From: Alphaproteobacteria bacterium
GTDB lineage: Bacteria; Pseudomonadota; Alphaproteobacteria; JAJTHO01; CANGXP01
Direction of reading: 5' to 3'
Length of the DNA: 64,000 nucleotides
NCBI GenBank assembly: GCA_947457935.1
Contig: CANGXP010000005.1
Coordinates: forward strand, 2,511 to 66,510
A program made the position numbers and the translations under genes. The notes beneath the pieces are model-generated. The model was not told where the DNA came from. It saw only the letters and a list, made by a program, of their open reading frames with translations, and did not search any database. Positions 5,977-56,612 of the stretch are shown here, in pieces (position 1 is the first letter of the stretch; every line of letters begins with the position of its first letter).

Positions 5977-5982
5977 AGCGTT

Positions 5983-9527: not shown

Positions 9528-11684
9528 ATGCACAGTGAGGAACTTTCTTCCGTTATTTTAAAAACAACATCTGCTGCGCTTGCGGTACGATTCCCCCCAT
9601 CTAGCCCAGAACGCGCCAAAATTAGACTACCCCTTTACGGCATAACCTTAGACGACATAAAAAAAGTTTGGCAAGATCAAGGGAAATTTGTTCCGCTGGA
9701 AGAAGCCTACACTGCACACGTTGCGGCACAACTCAAAGCAATTTGTTTAGAAAAAGGGTATGTTGCATATGATGGGGGGGTTGCCCTTGCACAAGCACAA
9801 AGCGCAAAGGACAATCTCACAGGTTTCTACAGGGGAGACTTCTGGGAAACAAACATCGAACTGGCGCAAGAATACGTCAAAATAAATAAAAATAACATCG
9901 CAACCGCTTACTATAAAGCGCGTCTAGGCGGCGATGAATTTGTGTATTTGACCGTTACTAAATCAGGCGTAACAGTACAGATTGCAGACTTTGCTAACCT
10001 AAGTGGGCTTAATCCCGCTCTCAGCAGTGAATTTGAAATTCTACAAGAGCTTAATCAGAAAGCATCAATAGCTAAGTTTGCTGGTGAGGAAAATAATGCT
10101 ATCACCACAGAAGAAAATCTAAACGAGGAAGCAAGCGCTAGCAATTCAAGACGAAAAACACAAGGGGATGATAGGCGCATAATTCCCCTAGGCGCACAGA
10201 GTGTAGAAGGCTACCAGCGTGCTGACGAGTACCTCAAAGCCATGGTGCAGCTCTATGGCGCAATAACGGAAAGACCAGCACTTCCAAACGAGGATCCAGA
10301 ACAAAAAGCACAACGTGATTTGAAGGATTTCTATACGGCACAGAAGGGATTTAATAAAGTTACAGGACTAGATCGAATTCAGCGCCTCAAGCAAGATACA
10401 GAGAACGTTACCGTTGGAACAGGGCTGGCAATCGCCTTCCAAATTTTGGATAAAAACAATACATCGCTTAATCTGCCACAATGGTGGGAAGCACAAATAA
10501 AAGAGCAGAAAGTACATTGCCAAACTATTGTTAAAGAGGGTGATCCACTCCCCTTGATAAGAATCGATAATCCTGAAGCTTTTGAGGCAACACTTAAAGT
10601 TTTTAAAGTTTTTATGGATCAATATACTAACGAGCTAAACTTAAAACCTTTTGTACAGCAGGACTCTGCAGTTCAAGAACCGCAAGCAAGCACTTTAGAG
10701 TTAAACTACGTTACATCAACAGGTAATGAATCGCAACCTTCAGCCAAGTCATTCCTCGAAGCCAAATTTGGGAACGCATATGCGATTGTCGCAAACGGCT
10801 TGGCAGGCGTTTCGCATGATAACGAGCAAAAGTATAAAAATATTCTCAATGGAATTTTGAATAACTACCTTGGCGGTGCAGGGCGCGTTCTACACCTTTC
10901 GCAAGACATTCAAAGTGCTGCCGATAAAGGCAACAGTCATGTTGGATTACTCGAAATTGGTAATTTCGCAGGAATGAACGCAGAATACACACACCATGGA
11001 TGCGATGCCATCAGCAGCACACTCTATGAAATAGCTAATAGCTCCATACAAAAATCCCTCTCAACACTAAAGGAACGGGGCGATGCCCCCGATACCTCTA
11101 GGGTATTACCCTACGAAAAAGTTGGCTTACGAGAGAGGGAGGATGCGGGAAAAATGGGCTTTGTCTTTGAAGGCATAACGGCAGAACAAGCGACTGCTTT
11201 GTTGGCTAAAGCTAAAGAAGACGTAGATAGTTTTATTGTTGCCCTCCATCTTGACAAGCTGCCCTGTCCTAAGGCGCCCGTTGCTGGTGTGCGAACGTAT
11301 ACAACTGTTAAAGCCATTCCGCAAGATTGCAATACCACCGAAGCTGCCTTTGCGTTCGTTGGCACCCTGCATGAACAACTAAACGCCACAAAAACAGCAG
11401 AGAAGTCAATGGCGGGGGAAGGAAGCGACTACGCCACACAACAAGTCGCTTGGCAAGAACATCAAGAAACAGCAAGCAGAGCCGTAAAGCCTCTTACTGA
11501 AGAACACAAGAATGCTTCTTTGCCCGCTCCAAAAGATATTGTCCGTGATTTACAGTTGAATCCCCCGCACCGCTTTGCGTCTAGTGTGTCTTTTGACTAC
11601 AGAAACAGTGATGTTTATCCTGATTTACACACATATGAAAGTCTCACCATCCAACTAGCAGCCGCCGCCTTATCTGGGCGTTAA
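9528..11684 (+). CDS. Large hypothetical protein (718 aa), low GC, with GGDEF-like motifs
   Basis: No confident family match. Contains ARLGGDEFVYL and a later segment LLEIGNFAGMNAEYTHHGCDAISSTLYEI...GKMGFVFEGIT resembling degenerate GGDEF cores. It is more AT-rich than its neighbours. Confidence 0.45.
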   Translation: MHSEELSSVILKTTSAALAVRFPPSSPERAKIRLPLYGITLDDIKKVWQDQGKFVPLEEAYTAHVAAQLKAICLEKGYVAYDGGVALAQAQSAKDNLTGFYRGDFWETNIELAQEYVKINKNNIATAYYKARLGGDEFVYLTVTKSGVTVQIADFANLSGLNPALSSEFEILQELNQKASIAKFAGEENNAITTEENLNEEASASNSRRKTQGDDRRIIPLGAQSVEGYQRADEYLKAMVQLYGAITERPALPNEDPEQKAQRDLKDFYTAQKGFNKVTGLDRIQRLKQDTENVTVGTGLAIAFQILDKNNTSLNLPQWWEAQIKEQKVHCQTIVKEGDPLPLIRIDNPEAFEATLKVFKVFMDQYTNELNLKPFVQQDSAVQEPQASTLELNYVTSTGNESQPSAKSFLEAKFGNAYAIVANGLAGVSHDNEQKYKNILNGILNNYLGGAGRVLHLSQDIQSAADKGNSHVGLLEIGNFAGMNAEYTHHGCDAISSTLYEIANSSIQKSLSTLKERGDAPDTSRVLPYEKVGLREREDAGKMGFVFEGITAEQATALLAKAKEDVDSFIVALHLDKLPCPKAPVAGVRTYTTVKAIPQDCNTTEAAFAFVGTLHEQLNATKTAEKSMAGEGSDYATQQVAWQEHQETASRAVKPLTEEHKNASLPAPKDIVRDLQLNPPHRFASSVSFDYRNSDVYPDLHTYESLTIQLAAAALSGR

Positions 11685-15621: not shown

Positions 15622-16124
15622 TTGACCTGAAACGCTTGTTTTGCAACGCTTTCAGCCGATTTTTTATCGAAAAATAAAATTGCAAGTCACTGATATATAA
15701 TAATATTTTTTGTAAGTAGTAGTGTACGAAAAAATAATAATTTTGCAGGATGACCTGAAAGGTGCTTTTTTCCTTGTTCTTAGCCGATTTTCTGCAAAAA
15801 TTATTATCGCTAAGCCATTGACAAATAATATTATTCTCTGCGATGTGTTTTGTAAGAAAAATACCTTGTTATGCAAAATGGCTTGAAAGCCGCCTTTTTC
15901 CTTGCTTTCAGCCGATAATGTGTAAAAAGCCACATACGCAACACATTGATAAACAACATTATTTTTTAATTGCACTCGCTATAAAAAATATTTCCGTCAT
16001 CAAGTTGCCTTAAGAAGGGCTTTTTTCTTGCCTTTCAGCCGATTTTCCCACCTCAATTTTTGCGTTTTTCATCAACACAAGTACTGTTGCGGAAGTGCCT
16101 ACAGTTTGCTACCGTGTGCGGATT
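15622..16124 (+). repeat. Tandem array of four degenerate ~127-bp direct repeats upstream of glyQS
   Basis: Units start at 15622, 15751, 15879 and 16005. Each begins TTGACCTGAAAG/TGGCTTGAAAGC/TTGCCTTAAGAAGG followed by a T-rich stretch and CTTTCAGCCGAT. Units 1-3 also share an internal ATTGA(C/T)AAA(T/C)AA(T/C)ATTATT segment. Confidence 0.6.
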
Positions 16125-19100
16125 ATGACACAGCCCCTCTCGTTCCAAAACATCATTCTCACCCTCCAGAAATTCTGGGGAAACCAAGGCTGTGCCTTGC
16201 TTCAGCCATATGATGTGGAGATGGGCGCGGGCACCTTTCACCCCGCAACAACCCTAAGATCTTTGGGCGAACAGCCGTGGCGCGCTGCCTATCCCCAACC
16301 CTGCCGCCGCCCTACCGATGGCCGCTATGGCGAGAACCCTAACCGCCTTCAGCACTACTATCAGTTCCAAGTTATCATAAAACCCTCGCCTGCCAACATC
16401 CAAGAATTGTATCTAGAAAGCCTGAAAGCCTTAGGAATAGACATTTCTAAGCACGATATTCGGTTTGTGGAAGACGATTGGGAAAGTCCTACTTTGGGGG
16501 CAGCGGGTCTTGGTTGGGAGGTGTGGTGCGATGGCATGGAAGTCACGCAATTCACCTATTTCCAGCAGGTTGGCGGCTTTGATTGCGCGCCCGTTTCTGC
16601 CGAGATTACCTACGGATTAGAACGCCTTGCCATGTATATTCAAGGCGTGGAGAATGTGTATGATTTGATTTACGTTGAAGGGGATAGGCACGAGGCACGA
16701 GGCACGAGGGAAGAAATGATTTCCTCTTCTCGCGCCTCGTGCCTCGAGCCTCTTACCTATGGAAACGTCTTCCTCCGCAACGAACAAGAATTTTCCGCCT
16801 ATAATTTTGAGCACGCAACCACCGAAAAGTTATTCCAACACTTTGCTGATGCCGAGCTAGAATGCCAGCACTTGCTCGCACAAAACCTTGCCCTGCCTGC
16901 CTACGACCAGTGCATCAAAGCCAGTCATACCTTTAATTTGCTGGATGCACGGCGGGTGATTAGTGTTTCCGAACGCGCCAGCTACATCGGGCGGGTACGC
17001 GCTCTTGCCAAGGGATGTTGCGAGGCATGGCTTGCGAAAGCGGCAGCAAGCAACAATCTTCAAGGTGCAGCACAAGAAAAAACTTTCTCCAATCCCCAAA
17101 CTCCAAACCTGAAAACCGAAAACAGCTTTTTATTGGAACTCCTTACCGAAGAAATCCCCGCACGGATGCAGCAAGCGGCACGGGCAGATTTATTACGGCT
17201 ATTCACGCAAAAGCTGGAAAAGCGCGGTATTACAGGGTTTAACGCAACAAGTTGTGTCACGCCACGCCGCCTTGCGTTGTTGGTGGAGGGCTTACCTGCC
17301 GCACAACCCGCCACCACGGAGGAACGGAAGGGCCCCAAAGTGGGCGCACCACAACAGGCGTTGGATGGCTTCTTGCGGAGTGCGGGTATTGAGGCAAGTA
17401 CGCTAAAACCTGTTCACAATCTCGCTAGACTGCAAGCGAAAATTGATGTTCCCGAGAACCAGCGCGCAGTGTATCCTTCATACATGAGCACTGGAAGCGC
17501 AGAGAACATCAATTTGCAGCAAGGTATAGTAGAGAGTGGGGATAGGTTTTTAGAACAGCGTGATGACGGCAAAGGCAACCTCTATTATTACGCGACGTTA
17601 CGCACGCCAGAAACCCCGCTTTCTGGGGTTCTTCCCGTTGTTATCAGTGAAATTTTGCTAGAATTTGCATGGGCAAAATCCATGCGTTGGGGCAATGGCG
17701 CGTTCCGTTGGGTGCGTCCGTTGCAAAATATTTTGGCGGTGCTGAATGGCGTACCGCTCGCGGGCGGCTTTGACCTTGGCAATCATCTTGAGAACTACCC
17801 TGCTGGCTATGTGACCGAATGGCATAGCGGGCAAACTGTGTTGGTGTTTAATAACACAACGGTGGGGCATCGCGTTCATGCGCCTGAAGCATTGCAAATC
17901 AACACGCCGCAAGAATATTTGAGCGCACTGCGTAATGCCTCTGTTGAGCCATGCGTTGAGGCACGCAAAAAGAAAATTATTGAGCACGCAACATTGCTTG
18001 CACCCAAGGGTTTAACCATTGATTTTAATGAGAAATTATTGGAAGAAGTGGCGGGCTTAAATGAGCATCCCGTGCCGTTATTGGGGCAAATTGACGCGAA
18101 ATTTATGACCGTGCCGCCTGAAATTCTCACCACAAGCATGGCGAGTCACCAGCGGTATTTCGCGTGTTATGATGCCGCTGGCACACTCCAGCCCTATTTT
18201 ATCGCGGTTGCCAACCAAAACAGTGATGATGCGGGTCTCGCCATTATTCAAGGCAATGAAAAAGTGCTCCGCGCCCGCCTGTTTGACGCGGCGTTTTTCT
18301 GGGAAAACGATAAAAAGCAAGCTGTTGAACGGGGTATGGAGAGCTTCCTTGAGCCGCTGAAGAACGTGGTGTTTCATCAGGGTTTGGGGACGGTGTATGA
18401 CAAGGCGATGCGGATTGCTGCCCTTGCTATGTCCTTCGCTGACGTTGTAGGGGGCGATGCATCTCACATACACAAGGCAGCCCTCCTTGCCAAAGCAGAC
18501 CTTTCCAGCGGGGTTGTGGGGGAGTTCCCCGAATTACAGGGGATTATGGGGAGTTATCTAGCAACGGCAGCGGGGCTAGATAAAAATATCGCTCTTGCTA
18601 TTCGTAAGCATTATCAGCCGATTGGTGATAGCCCTGTGCCTGCCAACCCTGTGAGTGTGGCGATTGCCTTAGCCGATAAAATGGACACGCTGGTGGCGTT
18701 TTTTGCGATTGGCGAAAAGCCTACGGGTTCAAAAGACCCGTTCGCGTTGCGCCGTGCCGCGATTGGCATTATTCGGTTGATTGTGGAAAATAAACTTCCT
18801 TTAAGCATTAAAAATTTAGTTCTGTGGGGATGCATTGAGTTTCAGCATCAGCATATAAAACCAATAGATGGCAGCGTTGTAGACGATTTAACAAACTTCC
18901 TTAAAGATCGCTTCGTGGTCTACCTCCGCGATACCCACACTCTCCGCCCCGACATCATTCACGCTGTTTTGGCTGCACAACCACAGTTTGGTGACCTTGT
19001 TGCCCATAAACAGGCGATTGAGCAAACACAAGCGTTTCTTGCTTTGAACCCGAATGCGCCTGCCTTAGTGGCGGGGTATAAACGGGCGGTGAATATCCTA

Positions 19101-19406
19101 AACATTGAAGAGAAGAAAGATAAACGCCGCTATGACGGCATTGTTGACGCGGCATTGCTGCAAGACGCTGCGGAAAAGGCATTGGATGCAGCGTTAAACG
19201 CTGTGACCACAGCGCTTGCAACAACAGCGGACTACACCGCAATGCTGGAGCAACTCGCAACCCTGCGCCCCGCCATTGACGCGTTTTTCACCGAGGTGTT
19301 GGTGAATAGCGAGGATGTGAGCGTGCGGGAAAATCGCTTGTTTATGTTGCACTCGTTCCGCGCACTCGTGCAGCGCGTGGCGGATTTTGGCGGGGTGGAG
19401 GGGTAA
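16125..19406 (+). CDS. glyQS: Fused glycyl-tRNA synthetase alpha+beta subunits
   Basis: The N-terminal ~300 aa align to GlyQ ([36 protein letters not shown]). After a short linker the sequence continues as GlyS ([16 protein letters not shown] ... [16 protein letters not shown]). It is a single uninterrupted ORF. Confidence 0.9.
16688..16751. repeat. Imperfect ~64-bp palindrome embedded in-frame in the glyQ portion
   Basis: GGCACGAGGCACGAGGCACGAGGGAAGAAA-tgatttc-CTCTTCTCGCGCCTCGTGCCTCGAGCC. It encodes about 18 extra residues ([18 protein letters not shown]) relative to E. coli GlyQ between VYDL and YG(D/N)VF. Confidence 0.6.
17400..17550 (+). mobile_element. Decayed in-frame copy of the 129-bp palindromic element inside the glyS portion
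   Basis: CAGCGCGCAGTGTATCCTTCATACATGAGCA...AATTTGCAGCAAGGTATAGTAGAGAGTGGGGAT aligns to the element core (CAGCGGCGCGAAGTGTACCTCTTCGTACATGAGAGA...AGTTTGCAGGCATGGGTAATTTTAAAGTGGAATG). GlyS is about 43 aa longer than E. coli GlyS at exactly this position. Confidence 0.45.
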
Positions 19407-29090: not shown

Positions 29091-29122
29091 AAAGCCTCTT
29101 ATGAAAATAAGAGGCTTTTTTG
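29091..29122 (+). terminator. Rho-independent terminator after coxA
   Basis: AAGCCTCTTA-tgaaaa-TAAGAGGCTT followed by TTTTTT. Confidence 0.6.
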
Positions 29123-29176
29123 TGGGGTGCCACAAACACCCTCTTGACAAAACTACTGGATAGCAGTATATATTAT

Positions 29177-29482
29177 ATGTCTGATGATATTCTTTTCGAG
29201 TGGGATGCACAAAAGGCTCTCAGCAATTTGCAAAAGCATGGTGTGTCTTTTGAATTTGCGATGGGTGCATTTTGTGACCACTTTGCCGTTGAAATACAGG
29301 ATAATCGGGTTGATTATGGCGAGCGGCGCATTAACCGACTGGGGTTATGGGATGGTGTCATCTTGCATGTAACATATACGCAGCGTGAAGAAAAAATCCG
29401 CCTTATTTCCGCCAGAAGGGCAGCACAGCATGAACGAGACTATTATTACAGCCAGAATGCAGCAGAACGGCACGATTATTAA
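29177..29482 (+). CDS. brnT: BrnT-family (DUF497) ribonuclease toxin
   Basis: MSDDILFEWDAQKALSNLQKHGVSFEFA ... VILHVTYTQREEKIRLISARRA is the characteristic DUF497/BrnT sequence. Confidence 0.7.
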   Translation: MSDDILFEWDAQKALSNLQKHGVSFEFAMGAFCDHFAVEIQDNRVDYGERRINRLGLWDGVILHVTYTQREEKIRLISARRAAQHERDYYYSQNAAERHDY

Positions 29483-29813
29483 CTATGCAGCAAACGGGGA
29501 GGCAATGCCCTTTTTTGTGCCGCCCCTTCGAGAAATGACAGAGGCAGACATTATTGCTGCTGCAAAAAGTGATGCGGATGCACAGCCGTGGACACAAGAA
29601 GCTTTAGAAGCTGCGCCAAAAATTTCCCGCCTTGCACAATTGCGCCGCAACCTCCATCTTACCCAAGAAGGATTTTCGTCGCGCTATCGCATTCCGCTTG
29701 GCACGCTGCGCGATTGGGAGCAAGGACGCAGCATCCCTGACCAAACAGCGCGGGCGTATTTAACCGCGATTGCCGCTGCCCCTGAGGTGATTGCAACAGC
29801 GTTGCAGGGGTGA
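29430..29813 (+). CDS. brnA: BrnA-type HTH antitoxin
   Basis: Overlaps the 3' end of brnT. C-terminal HTH (LRRNLHLTQEGFSSRYRIPLGTLRDWEQGRSIP). The start is uncertain, with an alternative at 29385. Confidence 0.55.
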   Translation: MNETIITARMQQNGTIINYAANGEAMPFFVPPLREMTEADIIAAAKSDADAQPWTQEALEAAPKISRLAQLRRNLHLTQEGFSSRYRIPLGTLRDWEQGRSIPDQTARAYLTAIAAAPEVIATALQG

Positions 29814-30940: not shown

Positions 30941-31333
30941 ATGACATCTCATCCCTTTTTTCGCTTCCTCCTTGTTGGTAGCGCCGCGTTTGTGGCGGAT
31001 ATTGTTTATACAAAAGCGCTGCTATTATTTGCTGTGCCGATTGTGCCGCTGCGCGTCAGCTCCTTTCTGATATTTTCCGCGCTGGTGTGGTATGCCAACA
31101 GAACGTATAGTTTTCAGGTCAAAACACCCCCAACATGCAGAGAATACTTGAAGTTCATGGCATCTGCAAGCGTAGGCGGGGCGGTGAATGTTGCGGTGTC
31201 CAGCTATGTTTTACACACCTATACCACCCTGCCCTTCCCTACCACGCTTGCCATTGCAGCAGGGGTGGCGAGTGGCATGGTGTTTAATTTTATGGCGATG
31301 CGCTATGTGGTGTGGGGAAAAGAAAAGAGTTAG
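30941..31333 (+). CDS. GtrA-family membrane protein
   Basis: Four-TM small protein (FFRFLLVGSAAFVADIVYTKAL ... FNFMAMRYVVWGK) typical of GtrA-like proteins. An alternative upstream start exists at 30896. Confidence 0.55.
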   Translation: MTSHPFFRFLLVGSAAFVADIVYTKALLLFAVPIVPLRVSSFLIFSALVWYANRTYSFQVKTPPTCREYLKFMASASVGGAVNVAVSSYVLHTYTTLPFPTTLAIAAGVASGMVFNFMAMRYVVWGKEKS

Positions 31334-32202
31334 GCGGGCTGTATTGTGTAGGCTGCTTCCTTTTCTTGGCATCTTTTAATAAGATTAATGGCGTTCGCAT
31401 ACTGCCCTATCGTCCCTGCATTGGGTGCATTATACCCTGTTTCTTCAGAGGGTTGATATACCTTTGCGTGCAGTGCATTGCCATATTGCATTAAAATATC
31501 AAGATTTTCGCCTTTTGTGGCGATAACCATTTCTTGCAATTCTTGAAGACGTTCTTCTGCCGCACTCATGCGAGTTGTTTCAACAGCTTGTTCAACACCT
31601 TTGTTTTCTTGCGTCATCTCGAAAGCAGTTGTTGTTTTTGCGGTGACAGCACTATCGCTACCACGACGCGCAACATCGCCCATCACTTTTTCCGCTGCCT
31701 TTTCCATGGTAGCAGCATCTTGCTGTGAGGATACTAAACCCGCTGTTTTTAGCCCCATTCTATCTGCGAGAACTGCTGCTTCACGGTTTTGTTTAAAAGC
31801 ATTTTGTGCTTGTTGCGGAGAATCTTGCTCTTGTAACCGCTTCGCAACTGTTTGCTTATCGACATTTCCAATTAATAACACTGCGCCTGTGGCAGCAAGT
31901 ACATTTGCATTCTTAGGTGCAGCTTGCACAGTGCGCGAATCGCGAAGTCCTAATCTTGCTTCTATATCTTGCGTTTTTGTTTTGTCTTGTTGTGCTGTTA
32001 CTGTCATCATTGCACTAATTGTCCCTATCGTTTCCGCTATTTTCTCAAAAATATTTGTTTTTCGTTGCGGAAAATTTTCACGAACATATCGCTCTTGTTG
32101 TTGTGTATTAATCGCGAATAACCCTGCTGGCTGCATTGCAGCAAGCGAATTGTTTGATTTCTCAACAGGGATTGAACGGTTGTCCATATCAATACTATAC
32201 AC
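31330..32202 (-). CDS. hypothetical Q/A-rich protein (290 aa)
   Basis: Low-complexity, helix-prone sequence. No domain recognised. Forms a two-gene minus-strand unit with 32294-33241. Confidence 0.4.
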   Translation of the reverse strand: MYSIDMDNRSIPVEKSNNSLAAMQPAGLFAINTQQQERYVRENFPQRKTNIFEKIAETIGTISAMMTVTAQQDKTKTQDIEARLGLRDSRTVQAAPKNANVLAATGAVLLIGNVDKQTVAKRLQEQDSPQQAQNAFKQNREAAVLADRMGLKTAGLVSSQQDAATMEKAAEKVMGDVARRGSDSAVTAKTTTAFEMTQENKGVEQAVETTRMSAAEERLQELQEMVIATKGENLDILMQYGNALHAKVYQPSEETGYNAPNAGTIGQYANAINLIKRCQEKEAAYTIQPA

Positions 32203-32293
32203 TATATGATGAATAAATCTTGTATTTTCTTAATGTATCTCAAAAAACTCTATTTTGCAAGTGATTTTTGCAAAATCGTTAACTATTTGTTAA

Positions 32294-33241
32294 CTAAATC
32301 ACTTTATGTGCCATGTTTTTTATTGAAGCCTGTGCAATGATGGTAAGCAACTGACTGTCTTGCTTATACATTTCTGAATTAAGCGGTATTAACAAAGCAC
32401 CCTCCCCCTTATCCATAAATCGCGTATTATAATTATCACCTAATGCACCGTGCCAATAGCAGACATCCCCAATAGCTTTCACCCATGCATTAAGGAATTC
32501 TTGATTTGTGGGACGTTGATAGTCTGCTGTTAGCAGACCTCTAGGTTGCAATTCTTGTCGCTCAATCTGCACTGCATGCAAAATAGTTTCTGCAGGGTTT
32601 ATCACAACATCACTGTTAAACTCTGCGCTATTACGAGGGAATGTGTCGTGCAAAGCATAATACACCGCCCCTAACACTTCTTCTTTGTCTGAAATACCAT
32701 TTCGAGGTAGGATATGCGCTAATAAGTTATGCCGTGGATTAGCCGTAAAATCTTGCTGTAAATTATGTTGCTGACAAAATGCCGCTTCCACTATCGGGGC
32801 AGGGACAAAGGTGAGTTGCGGGTTTCCTTCTGGTGTTTGGTGGCTTTTTCCTTCAGCATACCGCTGTTCAAAAATCTCTATGTTGCTATAAAAAGCCTGT
32901 AATGCTGCAAGAGGCCAAACAGGGAAGTTTTCGTCGTGGTGTCTTGGGCGCTGGGAGAGGGAAGCAGACGGCTGTAATTGCGTGAGCGCAAATCGCGCAT
33001 GACTGGATAAAACATGAATGGCTTGCGCGTACTCACTCCCTATTCTGAGTTGTTGACTTAAACTCATTGCTTCGCGCACAAGAGGAATTTTAATATCAGG
33101 TTCAATATTACCAATGAAAGTGGCTATCTTTGAAAAGTCACGCTCCCTATAAAGTTTTTGAAATTGCGCCTGTCCTTCTGCTATAAGAAGACGCCCTAAG
33201 GATAATGCTTCATCCATAAACCACCACTTTTTACTATACAA
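32294..33241 (-). CDS. hypothetical protein (315 aa)
   Basis: No domain recognised. Divergent from purB. Confidence 0.4.
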   Translation of the reverse strand: MYSKKWWFMDEALSLGRLLIAEGQAQFQKLYRERDFSKIATFIGNIEPDIKIPLVREAMSLSQQLRIGSEYAQAIHVLSSHARFALTQLQPSASLSQRPRHHDENFPVWPLAALQAFYSNIEIFEQRYAEGKSHQTPEGNPQLTFVPAPIVEAAFCQQHNLQQDFTANPRHNLLAHILPRNGISDKEEVLGAVYYALHDTFPRNSAEFNSDVVINPAETILHAVQIERQELQPRGLLTADYQRPTNQEFLNAWVKAIGDVCYWHGALGDNYNTRFMDKGEGALLIPLNSEMYKQDSQLLTIIAQASIKNMAHKVI

Positions 33242-35315: not shown

Positions 35316-35586
35316 TATAGGTCTTTACCGATACAAAAAATGTAGCCACACCTGCCGTTGAGTGATTGATTCCACAGACCCTATATAATAGGTGGGTGCC
35401 AGATGATAAAAACCACGGTTCTTACCAGCGCCAGATCCCTGTGAAATCGTATGGACCGAGGAATGACAAAACCCTATCGCACAGGGCAGCTACATCAGAC
35501 ACTATACAACAAACCGCCGCCCAATACAACTTTGCATTAGGGCTGTTTTTCTGCTATGGTTAATGTTCACATTAGGGAGAAACGTC

Positions 35587-36084
35587 ATGCCCAAAGATAA
35601 ATCCGTCACCACCCTCACCGTTACCCCCAAAGCCAGCGCGAAAGAAAACCGCAAGGTCGTCATTGCCATCCTGCAAGCACAACTAGCGGATTCGTTTGAC
35701 CTCTACAGCCAAATCAAGCAAGCACATTGGAACGTGAAAGGCGCAGAATTTATCGCGCTCCATGAACTATTCGACACAGTTGCCGCAACAGTTCTCCTTG
35801 CAACAGACACAATTGCCGAACGCATTCTCCAACTCGGCGGGGAAGCGGCAGGCACAGCACGATTTGTGGCAAAAAAGTCCACCTTGCCTGAATATCCGCA
35901 CCTCACGGCAGATTGCAAACAGCACGTTAAAGCCGTGAGCACCGTGTTAGAATTATACACCACCGCCTCCCGCGAGGCCATCAACAGCACGGATGACTTG
36001 GGCGATCCCGTCACGGCTGATATTCTCACAGGTATCACCCGCGATATTGATAAGCAGCTGTGGTTTGTCTCATCGCACTTATAG
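35587..36084 (+). CDS. dps: Dps-family DNA-binding ferritin-like protein
   Basis: LQAQLADSFDLYSQIKQAHWNVKG ... ferroxidase site residues. GGGAGA ribosome-binding site upstream. Confidence 0.9.
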   Translation: MPKDKSVTTLTVTPKASAKENRKVVIAILQAQLADSFDLYSQIKQAHWNVKGAEFIALHELFDTVAATVLLATDTIAERILQLGGEAAGTARFVAKKSTLPEYPHLTADCKQHVKAVSTVLELYTTASREAINSTDDLGDPVTADILTGITRDIDKQLWFVSSHL

Positions 36085-38688
36085 AGTAATCGCACCCTGC
36101 CACGCCCGAGCAGGCACACCCGCCGTATCGCCAATCACGCTTGCATTGGTGTAGAGCATATTGGTGATAACGGGGTTTTGTCCGCCCACATAGTCAACCA
36201 GCCATCCTGTAACAGGGGTAACACTCGGTGTTAAGCGCACCATCGTTGCGGTGGGGATTGCTGTTGTGGTGATGCTGATGTGCTTGCGGAACGTAATAGT
36301 CCCCGTGGCGGGGGTTGCCGCTTGCTCATGCACCCCGTAACGGAAAGTGTTAGCATCCACCACAAACACCGTTGCATCCGCCATATTATATTCATTGGTG
36401 GTTGCCCCAAACACACCGATTTTATTGTTGGTTGCCAAGCCATGCGCGGTAGAGGTTGCAGTTGCATAAGCAGCGCGTAATGTTCCTGTTGCTGATGCTG
36501 CCGCTGATGCACTGATTGTGTAAGTGAACGTGGTAGTGGTGGGTGTTGAGGCAACAATCTTTTGTCCGTTGTAGTAACTGCCCGTTGCGCCACTGATAAA
36601 CACGGGTTGCCCCACACTTAACCCATGCGCCGCGCTGGTGGTTGCCGTTGCTGTTGTGCCGCTCTTGGTGATGCTGTTTACGGTCAGCGTTGTCTCAACA
36701 GCGGTCATGCTTTGCGCCGCACCATACACCACAAAGCCCGTCAAGCCCGTTGCGCCTGTTAAGCCTTGCAAGGTTGTGCCGTTGTTCAACGTATAGCTAA
36801 TATCAATGGTGCTGCCGTTAATCACCGCCCCTGTAGGCCCTGCCCCGCGCAAGCCCGTAGTATAGGTTGCACTGTCTAAATAGTTCAGCACCGCCTGAGC
36901 AAACATTTTCTCAAACCGCCAGTAACCCGATACAGAGCCAGACGGGTGCAAGTCATCATCATGGGTGAGGGAATGTGACGCACCTTGTGTGAAGCAGTTG
37001 GTAATAGTGGGAATAGTTGTTTGTTGCGCGTTCCGTACTGCCCTAAAATTATTGTCGTTTGGTGAAGAGGTTGCGTCATTCCGCGCTGTTTCAGAAGCGA
37101 ATACAGGCAGTTGCGCCGCCGTTCTGCTGAAATTCGCCCGTAACAGCGATACCATCGTAGGGAATTGTGCCGCCCATTCCGCTTGTGTGCGCGGTGTTGC
37201 GTTGTTGCTATCGTTCGTACCGAGGCGAATAGAGATGACTTCCGCGTCACCCCCTGCATTGGTTAAGGCACTGGCGAAAGCGGTATGCACCGTTGAACCC
37301 GAAACACTCCATGTATTGCCGCTAGTTGGCAACAGCGTTGTGCCACTGGTTGCTCCGTTATAATGGGCAACGGGAATGCCTAAAGCGATTGAAAGCCTTG
37401 TTAAGCTATGCACCACCACGGAGGAAGGACTCGCATCGCGTAAACTTTTATACGTCCCCGATGATTGCTGCCACGCGCTAATCATCTCGCTGTTGGCGGT
37501 AAAGTCTGTTCCCGCCGTGCCAGAAGCCCCCACAGAGCGTTGGTCTTCCAAACTCTCTCCTGCACCCAGAATAATAATGCCCACGCCCCACGGTAACTGT
37601 GTGCGCTGAATATTCGCCACGTTGTTTGTGTGGCGCACTTCAAGGGCATATTGCCCCCCTTGTGGCACGCTAGGAAGCGTCACACTCCACGTCCCTGCTG
37701 TGGGGGTAGCGGCACGCGTCCATGCTATCACTTGCGCCCCCGCACTATCAATCACCCGCGCTTCAATGCCACTCGGCGAACCCGTATAAGTCCCTGTAAA
37801 GGTGAGCGTTTTGCTGGTTGTGCCCGCCGCCCGCTGGAATACTTTTGCATAGACGGTGTCAACGCCGTGGGTTGACGTATCAATCGCAACAGGCACGCCT
37901 GTAAATGGATAACAGCCCCGCGCTTGCGGCGCGCCCACACGGGTAATCACGTTTGCGCCCGTGCCGCTATCGGCAATCGTTGCAGCAGACGTATCAAATT
38001 TTGCATACAGGCTCGGGCTTTTCGCTAAATCAGTGATAATGTCCTGCCCCGCCGCAAGGTTGTTAATATCCGCATTGCTCAACGTACCATCTAGCTTGAA
38101 CAAGTAGCTTAAATGATTATTGAGAAAACTGTTTATAGCTTGGTCATAGCGGCAGCCAATAAAGAAATTACCAGAAGGTGTTATGGTAGAAGGCGACCCA
38201 ATCGCGACGGGTGTGCCCACCGTCACTGTACCACCGACAGGCGCAGAAAACACCTCTAGATTTGTGCCATTTCGGCGCATCCCCACAATATACCACCCAT
38301 TGACGTTGTTTGAGACAAGGGTTGCACCTGTTGCTATTGTTTGCGCCGTACCATTACGCGCCACACCTGTTAATAACCCATTTGCTAAGTATATTCGTGT
38401 ATTGTGCGCACCCCCTGTGTTGCCATGATTAAAGATATGCTGCGTCAATGATGCATGTAGTCGGGTGATTTTAACCAGTGCGCACACCGCCCAATCACTA
38501 TTTGGATAATCAAGGTTTGCGGCATCCGTCACCGCATAATAATCTGTCGTGCCGTTAAAATAGTTTGAGCCACGCGCTACCACGGTGGATGTGCCGCTGG
38601 GCAAGGGTGGCAGAATCGTTGTGCCTTTATTCGGCATAATTGCCTTTGCAACGGCGGTTGATGCGGGGCGTTTTATCTTTCTTTGCAT
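36079..38688 (-). CDS. Orphan phage-tail-fibre-like protein (LamG-like jellyroll, SASA/SGNH-type esterase, Thr/Ala-rich beta region)
   Basis: N-terminal LamG-like segment (DWAVCALVKITRL ... NGWYIVGMRRNGTNLEVF). Central segment with IILGAGESLEDQ resembling sialate-O-acetylesterase-type hydrolases. C-terminal TGxT/GATG-rich repeats. AGGAG ribosome-binding site 9 nt before the ATG at 38688. Confidence 0.6.
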   Translation of the reverse strand: MQRKIKRPASTAVAKAIMPNKGTTILPPLPSGTSTVVARGSNYFNGTTDYYAVTDAANLDYPNSDWAVCALVKITRLHASLTQHIFNHGNTGGAHNTRIYLANGLLTGVARNGTAQTIATGATLVSNNVNGWYIVGMRRNGTNLEVFSAPVGGTVTVGTPVAIGSPSTITPSGNFFIGCRYDQAINSFLNNHLSYLFKLDGTLSNADINNLAAGQDIITDLAKSPSLYAKFDTSAATIADSGTGANVITRVGAPQARGCYPFTGVPVAIDTSTHGVDTVYAKVFQRAAGTTSKTLTFTGTYTGSPSGIEARVIDSAGAQVIAWTRAATPTAGTWSVTLPSVPQGGQYALEVRHTNNVANIQRTQLPWGVGIIILGAGESLEDQRSVGASGTAGTDFTANSEMISAWQQSSGTYKSLRDASPSSVVVHSLTRLSIALGIPVAHYNGATSGTTLLPTSGNTWSVSGSTVHTAFASALTNAGGDAEVISIRLGTNDSNNATPRTQAEWAAQFPTMVSLLRANFSRTAAQLPVFASETARNDATSSPNDNNFRAVRNAQQTTIPTITNCFTQGASHSLTHDDDLHPSGSVSGYWRFEKMFAQAVLNYLDSATYTTGLRGAGPTGAVINGSTIDISYTLNNGTTLQGLTGATGLTGFVVYGAAQSMTAVETTLTVNSITKSGTTATATTSAAHGLSVGQPVFISGATGSYYNGQKIVASTPTTTTFTYTISASAAASATGTLRAAYATATSTAHGLATNNKIGVFGATTNEYNMADATVFVVDANTFRYGVHEQAATPATGTITFRKHISITTTAIPTATMVRLTPSVTPVTGWLVDYVGGQNPVITNMLYTNASVIGDTAGVPARAWQGAITL

Positions 38689-39003
38689 TATGGCTGCTCC
38701 TATTTTTGGGCAAAAAAAACGCCGCCTCCCGTGGGGGAGACGACGTTATTGTAAAACTTTTGAGTGCACTTACGGCAACTCTAAACCTACAGTACCCTAT
38801 TTTTTAGAAAATGTCTATAGGGGGGACGTGATTTTTTTCTACATGCATTAATCAATAAAAGCTCATAAATGTTATTTAATTGCTTTTTCGTAACAAAACT
38901 GCTACAATTTGTTTAGATTTTGCTTTGTGCTTGCACAAGCTCCGCTTCGCGGCATCTCTCTAAAAAATAGATGAAAAACTGTTGTTTATCCTTAAGGAAA
39001 ACT

Positions 39004-39747
39004 ATGAATCGTCGTATTCTCATTGGTTCAGGTATCGGGTTCGGTGCGGTTATTCTTTCGCTTGTTGGTCTTTTTACTTTCAATGCTGGTGCTCGTCACA
39101 CGGCAAATATTCTTGGAAGTGATGATTATCGGGCGAAATGGCTGACACAAATTTCAACGGATCTTGAATATCGCAAGTCTCAAATCTCTGTATTCCCTGT
39201 GTTTTTTACAATTGCTAATCGTCCATTAACGACCAAGCTTGTTGAAGCTTCCCTAAAGGCTGAACAACAGGTGGAAATTAATTGGAAGATTTCAGATTTG
39301 GTTGATAACTGGGATGACTTGACGAAGGAATTGCAGACCGCTGATTTTCGCAACCCTGTCTTTGTTCCAAAAACAAAGCCCATTTACAAAAACAATCGGG
39401 ATGCTTTTTACGCGTTGCTTGGGAGCAATTTTGCTTTCGAGCTTCGTGAAAATGGCACTTTTCGAGCCTGCATAACCGGACAATTTGTCTGGTTTACCAA
39501 TTATCCTGGTACACAAGACAACTGGATTCCACTGCCAAACCTGTTTAACTCCTTCCGAGGGGAGAAGACAGAAGCGGCACTACAAAATTCAGAGGTTGCG
39601 AGGTTTTTGAAGATCGATACAGATCCAGACGGCAGCGATCCCACGATTCCATGGGCATCCCCCAAAGGCTTTGTTGAGCCATTGGTTGAGTCTGGAAACA
39701 TCAGTTTCCCAACCTACAAAGTTTGTGGGGAGTGGCATTCGATATAA
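39004..39747 (+). CDS. hypothetical membrane-anchored protein, low GC
   Basis: N-terminal TM (ILIGSGIGFGAVILSLVGLF). AGGAAA ribosome-binding site. Followed by a strong terminator. Confidence 0.5.
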   Translation: MNRRILIGSGIGFGAVILSLVGLFTFNAGARHTANILGSDDYRAKWLTQISTDLEYRKSQISVFPVFFTIANRPLTTKLVEASLKAEQQVEINWKISDLVDNWDDLTKELQTADFRNPVFVPKTKPIYKNNRDAFYALLGSNFAFELRENGTFRACITGQFVWFTNYPGTQDNWIPLPNLFNSFRGEKTEAALQNSEVARFLKIDTDPDGSDPTIPWASPKGFVEPLVESGNISFPTYKVCGEWHSI

Positions 39748-39769
39748 CTTAATCCAACAATAGTGGATA

Positions 39770-39801
39770 AAGAGGGTGGTTTTATATCACCCTCTTTTTT
39801 T
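39770..39801 (+). terminator. Rho-independent terminator
   Basis: GAGGGTG-gttttatat-CACCCTC followed by TTTTTTT. Confidence 0.6.
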
Positions 39802-39842
39802 ATGGATCTGAACTTAGGGTTTGTAAATCTTACTCAAGGGAT

Positions 39843-40034
39843 TCAACGGACACCTTGAGGAAAATGCCTCGTTTCATAGGCATCAACCAACGCACCTAAA
39901 ACCTCCAGTTCGTCAAAAGCAAGGCTGCCTGCCTGTGCATCAAACAATTCTTCGATACGCGCAACAGCACGTTCATACTCTTGCGCGGTGCGCAGTGGTT
40001 TAACATCCATTGTCAACAACCGCCTAATACTCAA
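39843..40034 (-). pseudogene. Remnant of HigA-type antitoxin (N-terminal part only, HTH lost)
   Basis: LRTAQEYERAVARIEELFDAQAGSLAFDELEVLGALVDAYETRHFP matches the N-terminal dimerisation region of HigA-2-type antitoxins. The ORF stops where the HTH should begin. Confidence 0.4.
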
Positions 40035-53882: not shown

Positions 53883-54854
53883 TCAAGCTGAACGCTTTAG
53901 TGTATTATGAGGTAGCTCAAAGGAAGAAGAGAAATTAAATAACGAACTTTTTGTTGCTCCATCAATACAATACTCCCGTATTGCACTCGCAACAAATGCA
54001 GCAAGGTTAACAGGGACTGCATTACCAATCATTTGTTCTAAATTTGTTTTTGTCCCACAAAACTTAAAATCCTTAGGAAATGTTTGCAGATAACTACGTT
54101 CAATCGTAGTCAACGGTCTAATATTTTCGAGTATGATATTGTCAGGATCACAAGAATTCAGCTTGTATCCCTTAGGAATGGGTCTATTGACCCCGCGTAT
54201 TGTCGGACTCGGCTCATCAATAGTAAAGATACCGCGCCGATTGTAATTGCGTGGATGACGATAATAAGCCTCTAATCCCAGTGTATCTCCTAGATATTCA
54301 CGTATAGTCATTTTTCTCTCAGACAAATTTTTTCTTAAAACTTCTCTTAATTGATTATGCTCATCATGCAAATGCCCTATGAGAAAAAAGCGGGATCTCG
54401 ATTGTGGAACACCACAGAATGATGCATCCAAAATCACTGCGGTTAATCCATAACCTGCTTGTATAAACTGTCTTATAACATGCTCTATGATGGTGCTTTT
54501 TTTAATTTGCTCCACATTCTCCATAACAAACCAACTTGGTCTTATCGCACAAACAATATTAGAAAAACTAAGTGTTAAATTCGCTCTCCCTTGCGTTATG
54601 TCACGCTTACCAGCACTCGAAAAATCTTGACATGGCGGTCCCCCCATAATCAAGTCAGGAGAAAATTCTTTTATTTTCGCAATAGATTCATCTTCTTGAG
54701 TAAGATCTTGTTTAAAGATTGGATGTGTAAAGTTATTTCTATACAAAGAAATCGCTGCTTCCCAATTTTCAAAAGCAGCAATTACATCAAGCTTCGCCTT
54801 CTGAAAGCCAAGAGAAAGCCCTCCGCAGCCTGCAAAAAGATCAACACACTTCAT
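53883..54854 (-). CDS. DNA (cytosine-5)-methyltransferase
   Basis: Motif I DLFAGCGG, motif IV PPCQDFS, motif VI ENV, motif X near the C-terminus. AT-rich. Confidence 0.85.
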   Translation of the reverse strand: MKCVDLFAGCGGLSLGFQKAKLDVIAAFENWEAAISLYRNNFTHPIFKQDLTQEDESIAKIKEFSPDLIMGGPPCQDFSSAGKRDITQGRANLTLSFSNIVCAIRPSWFVMENVEQIKKSTIIEHVIRQFIQAGYGLTAVILDASFCGVPQSRSRFFLIGHLHDEHNQLREVLRKNLSERKMTIREYLGDTLGLEAYYRHPRNYNRRGIFTIDEPSPTIRGVNRPIPKGYKLNSCDPDNIILENIRPLTTIERSYLQTFPKDFKFCGTKTNLEQMIGNAVPVNLAAFVASAIREYCIDGATKSSLFNFSSSFELPHNTLKRSA

Positions 54855-55894
54855 CGAAATAAATCTGGAGAATTAAATAGAATTGCGTCAAAACGACGTT
54901 CTGGGCTTAATAAATTTTGTCCCCCGCCTAATATAATGTTCTTAATCTCAGATTTTCTTATAATTGGGGTTACAAGCCTTGGAGATGCCATATATTTGTT
55001 AGTGATATTACCTGCTGACGCAAAAGCTTTATCATTTTTTGTATTATAGGACAGAGTGTCAATAATTTTTGCGTGATTGAATTTTTTCTCATCCTTTATA
55101 TCGCTAAGCATTTTATACAACCAAACAGCGGTTCTTGTTTGTCTCGTTATACTCGTTGCTTGAGAACTCCAATTTGCAATACTTGCTATAAAATGGCTAA
55201 ATCCTGCATTGCTCCATACGACTATATCTAAACAATTTTCTGCTAATTCTGGTGATTTCCCTATTGTTTTCCAAATTGGTTGTAACAAGAACGCATGTTG
55301 CTTTTCTTCAAGTAATGCTGTTATTTTCATTATAGCATTAAGTATTTCATTTATTTTCTGTAATACTAACCGTGCATCCGACCAATCCATAATGTCGATA
55401 GTAGGCAGAAAATCCCCCAAGGATTGACCAAGATTACTTGCTATACTACATGCTAAATAAACAATAGTATCTGGTCTTACGACAAGTTCACTTCCATAAA
55501 ATTCTTCTCTAAGATCACATGTTGTATTATCTGGCAGAGCAGTGAGTTTTACCTCAAGCCCCACGAGACATTCGCCTGTACTCTCTTTTTGAACAACAAG
55601 ATCAGTTCTAGGCAGCGTTCCAACAACATATTTTTGATAAGGTGTGTGCTGTGCCTCAAAAGCAAAGTATGTGTCTTTGTTTTCAGCAGGAATTCCAAAA
55701 ATATTTTCTATAGTAATGAAATTTGATTTTAGCTTGCCATTTAGAATCGATAAATAATTCGCCTCAATATTTCTTGAGGCAAGATAACAGCACAAAGCCA
55801 CTGGGAAGGAAGAATTGAACTGGTTTTTGCCCCACGCTTCTTTCTGTGAAAAATCCCTGTTGGTTTTTGTTAATCCGAAGAGACTCGGGTGCAT
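54851..55894 (-). CDS. Putative type II restriction endonuclease partner of the m5C methyltransferase
   Basis: AT-rich ORF overlapping the methyltransferase start by 4 nt. No family recognised. Call is by position and composition only. Confidence 0.4.
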   Translation of the reverse strand: MHPSLFGLTKTNRDFSQKEAWGKNQFNSSFPVALCCYLASRNIEANYLSILNGKLKSNFITIENIFGIPAENKDTYFAFEAQHTPYQKYVVGTLPRTDLVVQKESTGECLVGLEVKLTALPDNTTCDLREEFYGSELVVRPDTIVYLACSIASNLGQSLGDFLPTIDIMDWSDARLVLQKINEILNAIMKITALLEEKQHAFLLQPIWKTIGKSPELAENCLDIVVWSNAGFSHFIASIANWSSQATSITRQTRTAVWLYKMLSDIKDEKKFNHAKIIDTLSYNTKNDKAFASAGNITNKYMASPRLVTPIIRKSEIKNIILGGGQNLLSPERRFDAILFNSPDLFR

Positions 55895-55898
55895 AATT

Positions 55899-56612
55899 TC
55901 ATCCCCTCGCCGCCGCGACAAAAGCCTGCATAATCCGCTTATCACCCTCGCAAACGTGATATTCAGGGTGCCACTGCACGCCGAGGCAAAACTTATAGGA
56001 ACGGTCTTCCACGCCTTCAATCACGCCATCGGGGGCGTAAGCGTTAATCACCGTATTGCCGCGCACGGTTTTCACCGCCTGATGGTGCGCGGTGTTGACA
56101 GCCAGCGTGTCACTGCCCACAATCTCGTGCAGCAACGTGCCTTTGGTGACGGTGACAACATGTCCCACCTCAGTGCGGGGGGTGGGTTGTTCGTGTTCCA
56201 GTGCGCTGTCCACACTATCAGGGATATGCTGAATGAGCGTGCCGCCCAACGCCACGTTCAGCAACTGCTCACCACCACAAATGCCCAAAATCGGGATGTT
56301 GCGTTCTAATGCCCGTTTGGTAATGGCATATTCAAACGCCGTGCGCTTGTCTTTCACTTGAACTGTACTGTGGCGTTCTGCCTCGCCATAGAGCGCAGGA
56401 TCCACATCAAACGCCCCACCTGTTACGAGTAATCCTTTAATCAGGTCAAGATAGGCATCTACATCCCCTGCAAAGTGCGGAATGGCTATTGGTAAGCCCC
56501 CTGCCTCGCGCACGCTATCAAAGTAGTTCTCGCGCAAGGCATACCATGGCATCCGCGAATAACCGCCGCCGTGTTCTGCATCCAAGGTGAGACCGATAAG
56601 GGGGAGAACCAT
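55899..56612 (-). CDS. Class I glutamine amidotransferase-like gamma-glutamyl-GABA hydrolase family protein
   Basis: GICGGEQ catalytic Cys motif and HPE(Y) region. Confidence 0.7.
   Translation of the reverse strand: MVLPLIGLTLDAEHGGGYSRMPWYALRENYFDSVREAGGLPIAIPHFAGDVDAYLDLIKGLLVTGGAFDVDPALYGEAERHSTVQVKDKRTAFEYAITKRALERNIPILGICGGEQLLNVALGGTLIQHIPDSVDSALEHEQPTPRTEVGHVVTVTKGTLLHEIVGSDTLAVNTAHHQAVKTVRGNTVINAYAPDGVIEGVEDRSYKFCLGVQWHPEYHVCEGDKRIMQAFVAAARG

Follow-up and report, generated by a model that had tools for sequence, protein, structure and literature searches.

A phage tail-spike-type gene with a predicted acetylesterase domain stands alone between homoserine dehydrogenase and dps in an uncultured freshwater alphaproteobacterium

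Tail spikes with an SGNH-type esterase deacetylate their receptors, as described for gp63.1 of Escherichia coli phage G7C and for receptor-binding proteins (RBPs) of Klebsiella prophages; in the case of gp63.1, both the binding and the deacetylation of the O-acetylated O-polysaccharide are essential for infection. Spike genes can also stand apart from the particle that they serve. TspA (rcc02623) of the Rhodobacter gene-transfer agent (GTA) RcGTA is an ectopic spike encoded by a single gene; its N-terminal part is a beta-sandwich, a regulator site lies 50–100 bp upstream, and a preprint describes the protein as a beta-helix glycanase conserved across an order. The gene described here extends both of these known kinds, the esterase tail spikes and the ectopic or domesticated phage RBP genes. 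It is an open reading frame (ORF) of 869 amino acids (aa), convergent with dps, in a stretch of 64,000 nucleotides (nt) of contig CANGXP010000005.1 (hereafter the window) from an uncultured freshwater alphaproteobacterium. Our best explanation, to which we give a probability of about 0.7, is that a phage receptor-binding tail-spike gene was captured singly by the host chromosome and has been retained there as a working gene.

Phage relatives and the chromosomal locus

The spike gene is of phage origin, of the receptor-binding or tail-spike type. We found 38 relatives among 5.8 billion clustered proteins and examined the genomic context of 13 family proteins, nine of which (about 38–85% identical to the window protein) occupy a tail-module position in a phage or prophage: P0004, P0005, P0006, P0011, P0013, P0016, P0021, P0024 and the IMG/VR locus L023. 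They stand at the distal end of the module, where adaptor, baseplate or fibre genes precede them and, in most cases, the holin and endolysin genes follow directly, and it is because all nine of the examined non-chromosomal relatives end phage tail modules that we identify the gene as tail-spike type. The window gene thus belongs to a phage-spike family by descent, not by its present context. P0004 (85% identity), P0005 (74%), P0006 (62%), P0016 and P0013 are carried on podovirus-like contigs of 23–45 kb. P0011 and P0024 belong to modules of myovirus type, that of P0024 including an integrase. P0021 adjoins the gene for a giant polyvalent protein, and L023 is a contig of 195 kb.

The relatives align from the N- to the C-terminus, and the spike body is collinear across the phage copies from the residues P(L/I)PNG onward. 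It is preceded, ahead of the LamG domain, by a variable peptide of 10–35 aa, of which each phage platform has its own version. No conserved partner gene (adaptor or chaperone) was seen near the phage copies, the small genes downstream encoding holin-like membrane proteins. The complete architecture is rare, occurring in only about 17 clusters (at 50% identity) in an exhaustive profile search, whereas the esterase module alone gave 4979 representatives at E ≤ 1e-3 and is found in hundreds of other architectures. Neither tblastn against 50,697 deposited phage genomes nor a single-sequence scan of GTDB genomes gave a match.

Two further features of the phage copies can be recorded here. The copy on L023 (3968–6544; an uncultivated virus genome of 36% GC and jumbo size) joins the spike body to a different N-terminal peptide, so that the spike module crosses phage types and a GC range of 36–62%. 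The spike-bearing phage contigs L007 (1–5948) and L022 (1–5281) encode giant polyvalent proteins of 2148–2277 aa (LPD22, PBECR3, ART-PolyVal), followed by RBP-like proteins of 1332–1416 aa.

In the window, the spike gene begins with ATG and ends with a stop codon at 36079–36081, which overlaps that of dps (plus strand, 35563/35587 to 36084) by 6 nt (TTATAG, 36079–36084). The neighbouring genes are those for homoserine dehydrogenase (HSD), Dps, MTHFS and ADSL. Pfam, NCBIfam and PHROG scans found no phage, GTA or prophage family among the window ORFs examined, which comprise the gene table for about 26–48.6 kb and the twenty largest ORFs beyond that stretch; those that could be annotated are housekeeping genes, a restriction–modification (R–M) pair, toxin–antitoxin fragments and an O-antigen ligase. 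PADLOC gave no match for the spike or its unannotated neighbours, and PHROGs none for the unannotated neighbours of the chromosomal copies. The locus has no tRNA genes and no att-like or meaningful flanking repeats that could be integration scars. Foreign base composition was considered as a mark of acquisition and rejected, the GC content of the spike gene (52.8%) being like that of the housekeeping genes. An earlier reading made from the letters of the window alone (the sequence-only reading) had taken the 869-aa ORF for an orphan gene of phage receptor-binding type that converges on and overlaps the dps stop and has no phage genes at its sides; all of this stands, the absence of phage genes applying to the ORFs examined.

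The two closest relatives of the window protein, P0002 (89% identical) and P0003 (88%), also lie at the HSD–dps locus, in independent assemblies from relatives of the host (contigs L009 and L010, respectively) whose flanking genes have diverged (HSD synonymous divergence, dS, of 0.33–0.48). In both, dps is convergent and overlapping, as in the window. The single-gene site between HSD and dps is therefore fixed in three genomes. DNA homology among the three restarts exactly 149 nt upstream of the ATG, and with the phage contig L004 the homologous stretch stays inside the ORF, starting near codon 27 and ending 10 nt short of the stop codon. The DNA that separates the 149-nt leader from the HSD stop is unrelated among the three, with 22 nt in L009, 1186 nt in the window and 1282 nt in L010. 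The HSD of the host is 92% identical to that of a metagenome-assembled genome from Lake Mendota, the next relatives being at about 55–62%.

A fourth orphan copy, P0025 (41% identical), lies in a different and GC-richer bacterial chromosome (L024, 10001–12217; a 43-kb contig of JGI 3300081713), between argF/aminotransferase genes and flgF-flgG-flgA-flgH and on the same strand. As this chromosome is unrelated, capture of the spike family by a chromosome must have happened at least twice. The called start of P0025 gives a Tat-like signal, SRRKVLIAMAAALTSFA, which we considered as evidence of secretion and rejected, since alignment with P0027 favours an internal start codon.

Predicted enzyme, selection and exchange with phages

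A model of the spike by AlphaFold2 (AF2), built on a 20-sequence alignment (A1), was confident (mean pLDDT 80.6, pTM 0.76); its domains are listed in Table 1. Foldseek matched the N-terminal part to LamG, pentraxin and phage ConA-like folds, and the esterase part to XAC1771 (7kmm, 4.3e-17), FI8 (9h4u, 2e-13), SIAE (8f9r, 2e-13) and a CE20 structure (9ega, 6e-11), and showed the C-terminal domains to be beta-rich. An alpha/beta/alpha fold of SGNH type is thus indicated by Foldseek and also by a PDB profile match to FI8 (6.6e-7), and the order of sandwich followed by esterase is present in FI8 and XAC1771 too. The esterase blocks read G-A-G-E-S379 (block I), G490-x-N492-D493 (block III) and D578-x-x-H581 (block V). 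Ser379, D578 and H581 align with the FI8 motifs, Ser379 with the serine of the GQS nucleophile motif; S379, G490 and D493 are invariant across the alignment, and N492, D578 and H581 are at least 90% conserved. A catalytic serine, an oxyanion Gly-Asn and an Asp-x-x-His are accordingly all present at the level of the sequence. Family databases were less direct. The sole Pfam match of the window protein was to GDSL_2 (Lipase_GDSL_2; aa 460–583) at 20 bits against a cut-off of 32.9 bits, with no SASA match in that scan and none of any kind in NCBIfam; the SASA family PF03629 (threshold 24.8 bits) is passed by the full-length homologs P0029 (63 bits) and P0011 (37 bits), and many relatives bear a precomputed PF03629 assignment.

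The insertion that follows the esterase and its linker consists of two beta-barrel repeats of the form AHGL..G..V.I.G...NG..V...F.Y. This Thr/Gly/Ala-rich region comprises two related units of about 55 aa (37% identical, E 2e-8), matches PHROG 9998 and PHROG 701 ('virion structural protein') over aa 667–775 and weakly resembles the beta-barrel insert of the phage endosialidase 4hiz (E 0.012). The N-terminal peptide has no DNA-level homology to phage L004 and is similar to peptides of the form R-x-(I/L)-x-(S/R)-P...I/V in some phage copies. Inspected by eye, the window protein showed neither a Sec nor a Tat signal peptide. Because of the fold and the conserved residues, we predict that the protein binds a surface glycan through its LamG and beta-barrel modules, the glycan probably being the host lineage's own polysaccharide, and that a SASA-type esterase with Ser379, Asp578 and His581 removes O-acetyl groups from it.

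The sequence-only reading had proposed the order LamG, SGNH esterase and beta repeats, an order that AF2 and Foldseek support once the Ig-like (immunoglobulin-like) domain at aa ~259–365, which it did not list, is added. The acetylesterase motif that it picked out, IILGAGESLEDQ (aa 371–382), does contain the invariant Ser379. What it called TG/TA-rich repeats are real repeats, namely the two units just described. It had also suggested a Foldseek comparison with tail proteins, in which a cyanopodophage tail spike and many LamG proteins of phages appeared as weaker matches. We do not favour the secreted adhesin or esterase that it offered as an alternative, given the missing signal and the phage-like N-terminus.

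The ORF is intact and under purifying selection in every domain. Among the chromosomal copies the spike has a dN/dS (omega) of 0.10–0.16, compared with about 0.05 for HSD and dps. By domain, omega is 0.06–0.28 in every structured part and 0.25–0.33 in the N-terminal peptide. All three chromosomal copies are intact over a dS of 0.5–1.0; simulations of ORF survival with substitutions only left an unconstrained ORF open in at most 2.4% of runs at a level of 0.05 substitutions per site. Between the window and L009, the LamG and Ig-like domains look vertically inherited, with a dS of 0.15–0.28 and an omega of about 0.25, and each of these two copies differs from L010 by a dS of about 1.0 in the same domains.

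The repeat region has a different history. Over about 75 codons (columns 676–750; a segment of ~300 nt) the L009 copy is 95–97% identical in nucleotides to phage L004, with 91% in the adjacent alignment window, whereas the same stretch of L009 is only 68–76% identical to the window copy. Domain-wide, the repeat-region dS between L009 and L004 is 0.22, and dS taken domain by domain is mosaic. This mosaic identity indicates that the chromosomal gene exchanges segments with phage-borne spike alleles and continues to do so, with the repeat insertion (aa 660–797) as the hot spot. If the alignments are read in this way, phages whose spike genes take part in the exchange must infect the host lineage, and the locus ties uncultured phages (contigs L004, L005 and L007) to a specific uncultured host.

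The conserved leader

A strongly conserved, terminator-containing leader precedes the spike gene. Its upstream part, a near-invariant 60-nt block 90–149 nt before the ATG, contains a -35-like TAGACA (38817–38812) and a -10-like TACTGT (38794–38789) separated by a 17-nt spacer, together with an inverted repeat, CCCTAT-N16-ATAGGG (38795–38822), that is unique within the window. We read the block as a putative promoter plus operator. A small hairpin follows, in which pairs are maintained through one-sided changes (U-G, C-G, U-A), and then a strong hairpin whose stem (38747–38718) has 8 G-C pairs of 13 and runs into T8 (38719–38712). This terminator-like hairpin hardly varies among the three genomes, and its single stem substitution, C to T, retains a G-U pair. 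The sequence-only reading had noticed the hairpin and its T8, both of which are real and conserved; the gap that it gave between the T-run and the AGGAG ribosome-binding site, about 20 nt, is in fact 10 nt.

A scan for terminators found two sites in 600 bp where 0.9 are expected, so that a single hairpin is unremarkable, and its significance comes from near-invariance in three diverged genomes and not from the scan count. The block and hairpin have been conserved beyond neutral expectation, with coding dS at 0.3–1.0, and the leader fold has a z-score of -3.75. No Rfam family reached its gathering score in the leader. Minimum-free-energy and alignment folds gave two independent hairpins only, with no apparent antiterminator alternative. 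The leader element occurs once in the window and was not seen in the phage contigs fetched, and four exact-pattern scans for the block and the terminator in IMG/VR and the JGI metagenomes gave no match. Only 23 nt separate the T-run from the ATG; transcription of the ORF must therefore pass through the terminator, and the locus would offer a compact promoter–terminator switch.

It is possible, at well below even odds, that the hairpin and block are not a leader at all but an independent small RNA (sRNA) gene, or the native 3′ end or terminator of HSD, behind which the spike happened to land. The short distance in L009, where the block starts 22 nt after the HSD stop and on the same strand, would suit this, as would the sRNA-like layout (5′ hairpin, then A/U-rich sequence, then a U8 terminator), a weak sub-threshold Rfam likeness solely to sRNAs and the lack of any alternative antiterminator pairing. 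However, the 23 nt before the ORF leave no room for another promoter, so expression would have to cross the element anyway. Divergent inserts split the block from HSD in the window and L010, and the block remains invariant and stays with the spike; nor was any copy without the spike found in the exact-pattern scans of IMG/VR and the JGI metagenomes.

The DNA upstream of the block is itself variable. A slot that runs from the HSD stop to the leader block (38838–40023) is a hot spot of accessory DNA with sharp shared boundaries. In the window it holds a 55-aa antitoxin-like ORF (39843–40010, minus strand) and a 258-aa signal-anchored hypothetical of low GC content (43%; 38971–39747, plus strand), and in L010 and L011 an unrelated 406-aa ORF. 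L009 alone has a 503-aa polytopic membrane protein (5580–7091, minus strand) between MTHFS and ADSL, which is absent from the window. At the other end of the spike gene no terminator lies between it and dps (36079–36084), so each gene's transcripts should enter the other gene antisense.

Weighing the explanations

In the explanation that we prefer, a phage spike gene was captured alone into the chromosome and became fixed between HSD and dps. Transcription would start in the invariant block and mostly stop at the hairpin, the spike being expressed only upon read-through of the terminator or de-repression of the promoter. Since the protein retains a phage-type N-terminus and no signal peptide was seen, it probably acts outside the cell only after lysis, whether mounted on a particle, released from one or as a free enzyme. 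The identity to phage alleles (85% in amino acids overall and 95–97% in nucleotides in one segment) and the narrow distribution suit a recent capture better than they do an ancient component of a GTA. The main interest of the locus lies in the conserved promoter–terminator leader, the exchange of alleles with phages and the recurrent capture of a rare spike family by chromosomes of alphaproteobacteria.

Several points weigh against this explanation. No GTA, tailocin or prophage gene and no GTA regulator was found among the window ORFs examined. No empty HSD–dps site was found, the more distant relatives lacking HSD–dps synteny, and sampling is sparse, with three informative contigs and no HSD relatives between 96% and 62% identity. 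A consensus scan called no sigma-70 promoter in the leader, which may, as its position in L009 suggests, be native DNA. The window protein reaches no Pfam threshold, and its N-terminal peptide, the would-be particle anchor, is the least constrained part. Finally, as recombination brings in segments, part of the low dN/dS may have been acquired while these were carried by phages; the most vertical-looking segment nevertheless still has an omega of about 0.25.

As a special case of single capture, the gene may be the ectopic spike of a GTA or tailocin, co-regulated with it through the invariant upstream block. The likeliest of the individual roles is that of an ectopic spike, perhaps a detachable one, of a particle that derives from a phage and is encoded at another place in the genome, although we hold it only tentatively and think it less probable than its converse. 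The host is an alphaproteobacterium, the protein has kept a phage-type N-terminal peptide with no signal visible by eye, the invariant block lies 90–149 nt upstream of the ATG, and a further orphan copy exists in another bacterial chromosome. We know of no GTA in the host organism. The absence of GTA and tailocin genes and regulators among the ORFs examined speaks against such a particle, as do the lack of a CtrA-type box in the conserved leader, a fold unlike that of TspA and the poor conservation of the N-terminal peptide. The very narrow distribution and the closeness to present-day phage alleles are likewise unlike those of old, vertically inherited GTA genes.

A defensive role is improbable, at odds clearly longer than those of the particle spike. 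The spike would here be a receptor-destroying enzyme that protects kin by stripping the O-acetyl groups that phage spikes need; it would, again improbably, be kept silent by the terminator-gated leader and be released at lysis or induced by a phage that overrides the terminator, and its specificity would, with no better odds, be kept current through recombination with phage spike genes. Esterase spikes such as G7C gp63.1 do need an acetylated receptor, alleles are common to host and phages, and the terminator-gated leader, the purifying selection and the missing secretion signal would all fit. On the other hand, we found no precedent, no PADLOC match and no phage regulator site, neither the phage contigs fetched nor IMG/VR contain the leader motifs, and the idea is purely inferential. 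If true, it would represent a new type of anti-phage mechanism, made from the attacker's own RBP.

It is equally unlikely that the gene is a functionless last remnant of a decayed prophage, a chance survivor occasionally refreshed by phage recombination. Tail-fibre genes often outlast prophage decay and recombine with infecting phages, which counts in favour of such a remnant, as does the mosaicism observed. However, three copies have stayed intact over a dS of 0.5–1.0, omega is about 0.25 in the apparently vertical segment, and neutral simulation rarely keeps such an ORF open. All other prophage genes would have to be gone, down to the 6-nt dps overlap, with no att scars or tRNA genes left and with a near-invariant leader. 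A non-phage origin, with the gene coding for an ordinary carbohydrate esterase or adhesin of bacteria, is effectively refuted, as is an assembly chimera: the esterase module alone is widespread, as noted above, but the full architecture is confined to its few clusters, with 9 of 13 proteins in phage tail modules, and the same junctions recur in three independent, sequence-diverged assemblies. Single capture of a working phage spike gene remains our best explanation.

Comparison with known systems

Table 1. Coordinates of the spike gene, its domains, its leader and the adjoining features in the window
Feature	Position	Strand	Basis or remark
869-aa ORF, phage tail-spike-type LamG/Ig-like/SASA-SGNH acetylesterase/beta-barrel-repeat protein	36079..38688	-	
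N-terminal peptide, aa 1-32, MQRKIKRPASTAVAKAIMPNKGTTILPPLPSG	38593..38688	-	alignment, DNA comparison, omega
LamG/pentraxin-like jellyroll, aa 33-258	37915..38592	-	AF2 (pLDDT about 85-96), Foldseek
Ig-like beta-sandwich before the esterase, aa 259-365	37594..37914	-	AF2, Foldseek, profile match
SASA/SGNH-type carbohydrate O-acetylesterase domain (predicted), aa 366-610	36859..37593	-	Pfam, alignment, Foldseek
Beta-sandwich linker domain, aa 611-659	36712..36858	-	alignment, AF2
Window-subclade insertion of ~135 aa (aa 660-797)	36298..36711	-	PHROG, alignment, repeat comparison
C-terminal beta domain, common to all family members, aa 798-869	36082..36297	-	alignment
Near-invariant 60-nt upstream block (putative promoter and operator)	38778..38837	-	three-genome alignment A2
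Small leader hairpin 1, GAGU..ACUC + 3 pairs	38762..38781	-	alignment fold
Intrinsic-terminator-like hairpin, 13 bp, loop CCAC, then T8	38712..38747	-	scan, fold, alignment
Shine-Dalgarno AGGAG, 8 nt before ATG, 10 nt after T-run	38697..38701	-	
dps, convergent neighbour; fixed right boundary of captured gene	35563..36084	+	
Variable accessory slot, HSD stop to leader block	38838..40023	.	1186 nt here

Elsewhere in the window, a 1103-aa ORF (16095–19406, plus strand) is a fusion of the alpha and beta subunits of glycyl-tRNA synthetase (GlyQ-GlyS). The R–M pair (53883–56020, minus strand) is of Type II and combines a HindVP-type restriction endonuclease with a C5 cytosine methyltransferase, and a BrnT-toxin-like ORF with an adjacent small ORF (29120–29813, plus strand; as listed in the gene table for L001, an identical contig) is possibly a BrnT/BrnA pair. 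A 718-aa ORF (9528–11684, plus strand) and two ORFs of 290 and 315 aa beside gtrA (31330–33241, minus strand) have no Pfam, PADLOC or PHROG match.

The leader recalls the PR′–tR′ region of phage lambda, in that a promoter-like block, a predicted transcript of about 75 nt and a strong intrinsic terminator stand before a phage structural gene. Unlike in lambda, we found neither an antiterminator gene nor a qut- or nut-like site, and no copy of the element in a phage, and the likeness is one of resemblance only. For the enzyme itself, the nearest folds are those of the SASA/CE20 acetylesterases (XAC1771, mammalian SIAE and FI8), which the spike matches over aa ~259–610, including the preceding beta-sandwich, and whose Ser and Asp-x-x-His positions are conserved in it. 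Block I differs, being GES in the spike and GQSN in those enzymes, which are free metabolic or secreted proteins and lack the LamG head, the repeat barrels and the phage context.

The gene resembles RcGTA TspA and other ectopic RBP genes (ghsA/ghsB, tail fibre) in being of spike type and in standing singly at one fixed locus among the housekeeping genes of an alphaproteobacterium. Going by the preprint description, the proteins themselves are set apart, TspA being a beta-helix and the window protein LamG plus esterase. The spike is furthermore restricted to one narrow lineage, is 85% identical to a phage allele and recombines with it, in contrast to TspA. By analogy, we take TspA as a close functional precedent for the particle-spike option and not as a homolog. 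If a particle-associated role is true, the concept of the ectopic spike would no longer be confined to Rhodobacter GTAs but would take in an uncultured freshwater lineage, and esterase spikes as well.

The closest likeness in kind is to the esterase tail spikes, among them G7C gp63.1, the SGNH RBPs of Klebsiella prophages and the esterase domain of epsilon15, which are the same virion type of RBP with an acetylesterase of the SGNH superfamily. Like these, and as predicted from its sequence and model, our spike would be expected to deacetylate a surface polysaccharide and not to cut it, and its phage homologs hold the RBP position in tail modules. It is unlike them in that its esterase is of SASA/CE20 type and is preceded by LamG and Ig-like domains, in having no similarity to deposited phages in the tblastn search, and in that the window copy lies outside any phage. 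The locus thus represents a phage receptor-binding enzyme that has been taken over as a single gene, with its own conserved control region, and that still exchanges with the phage gene pool.

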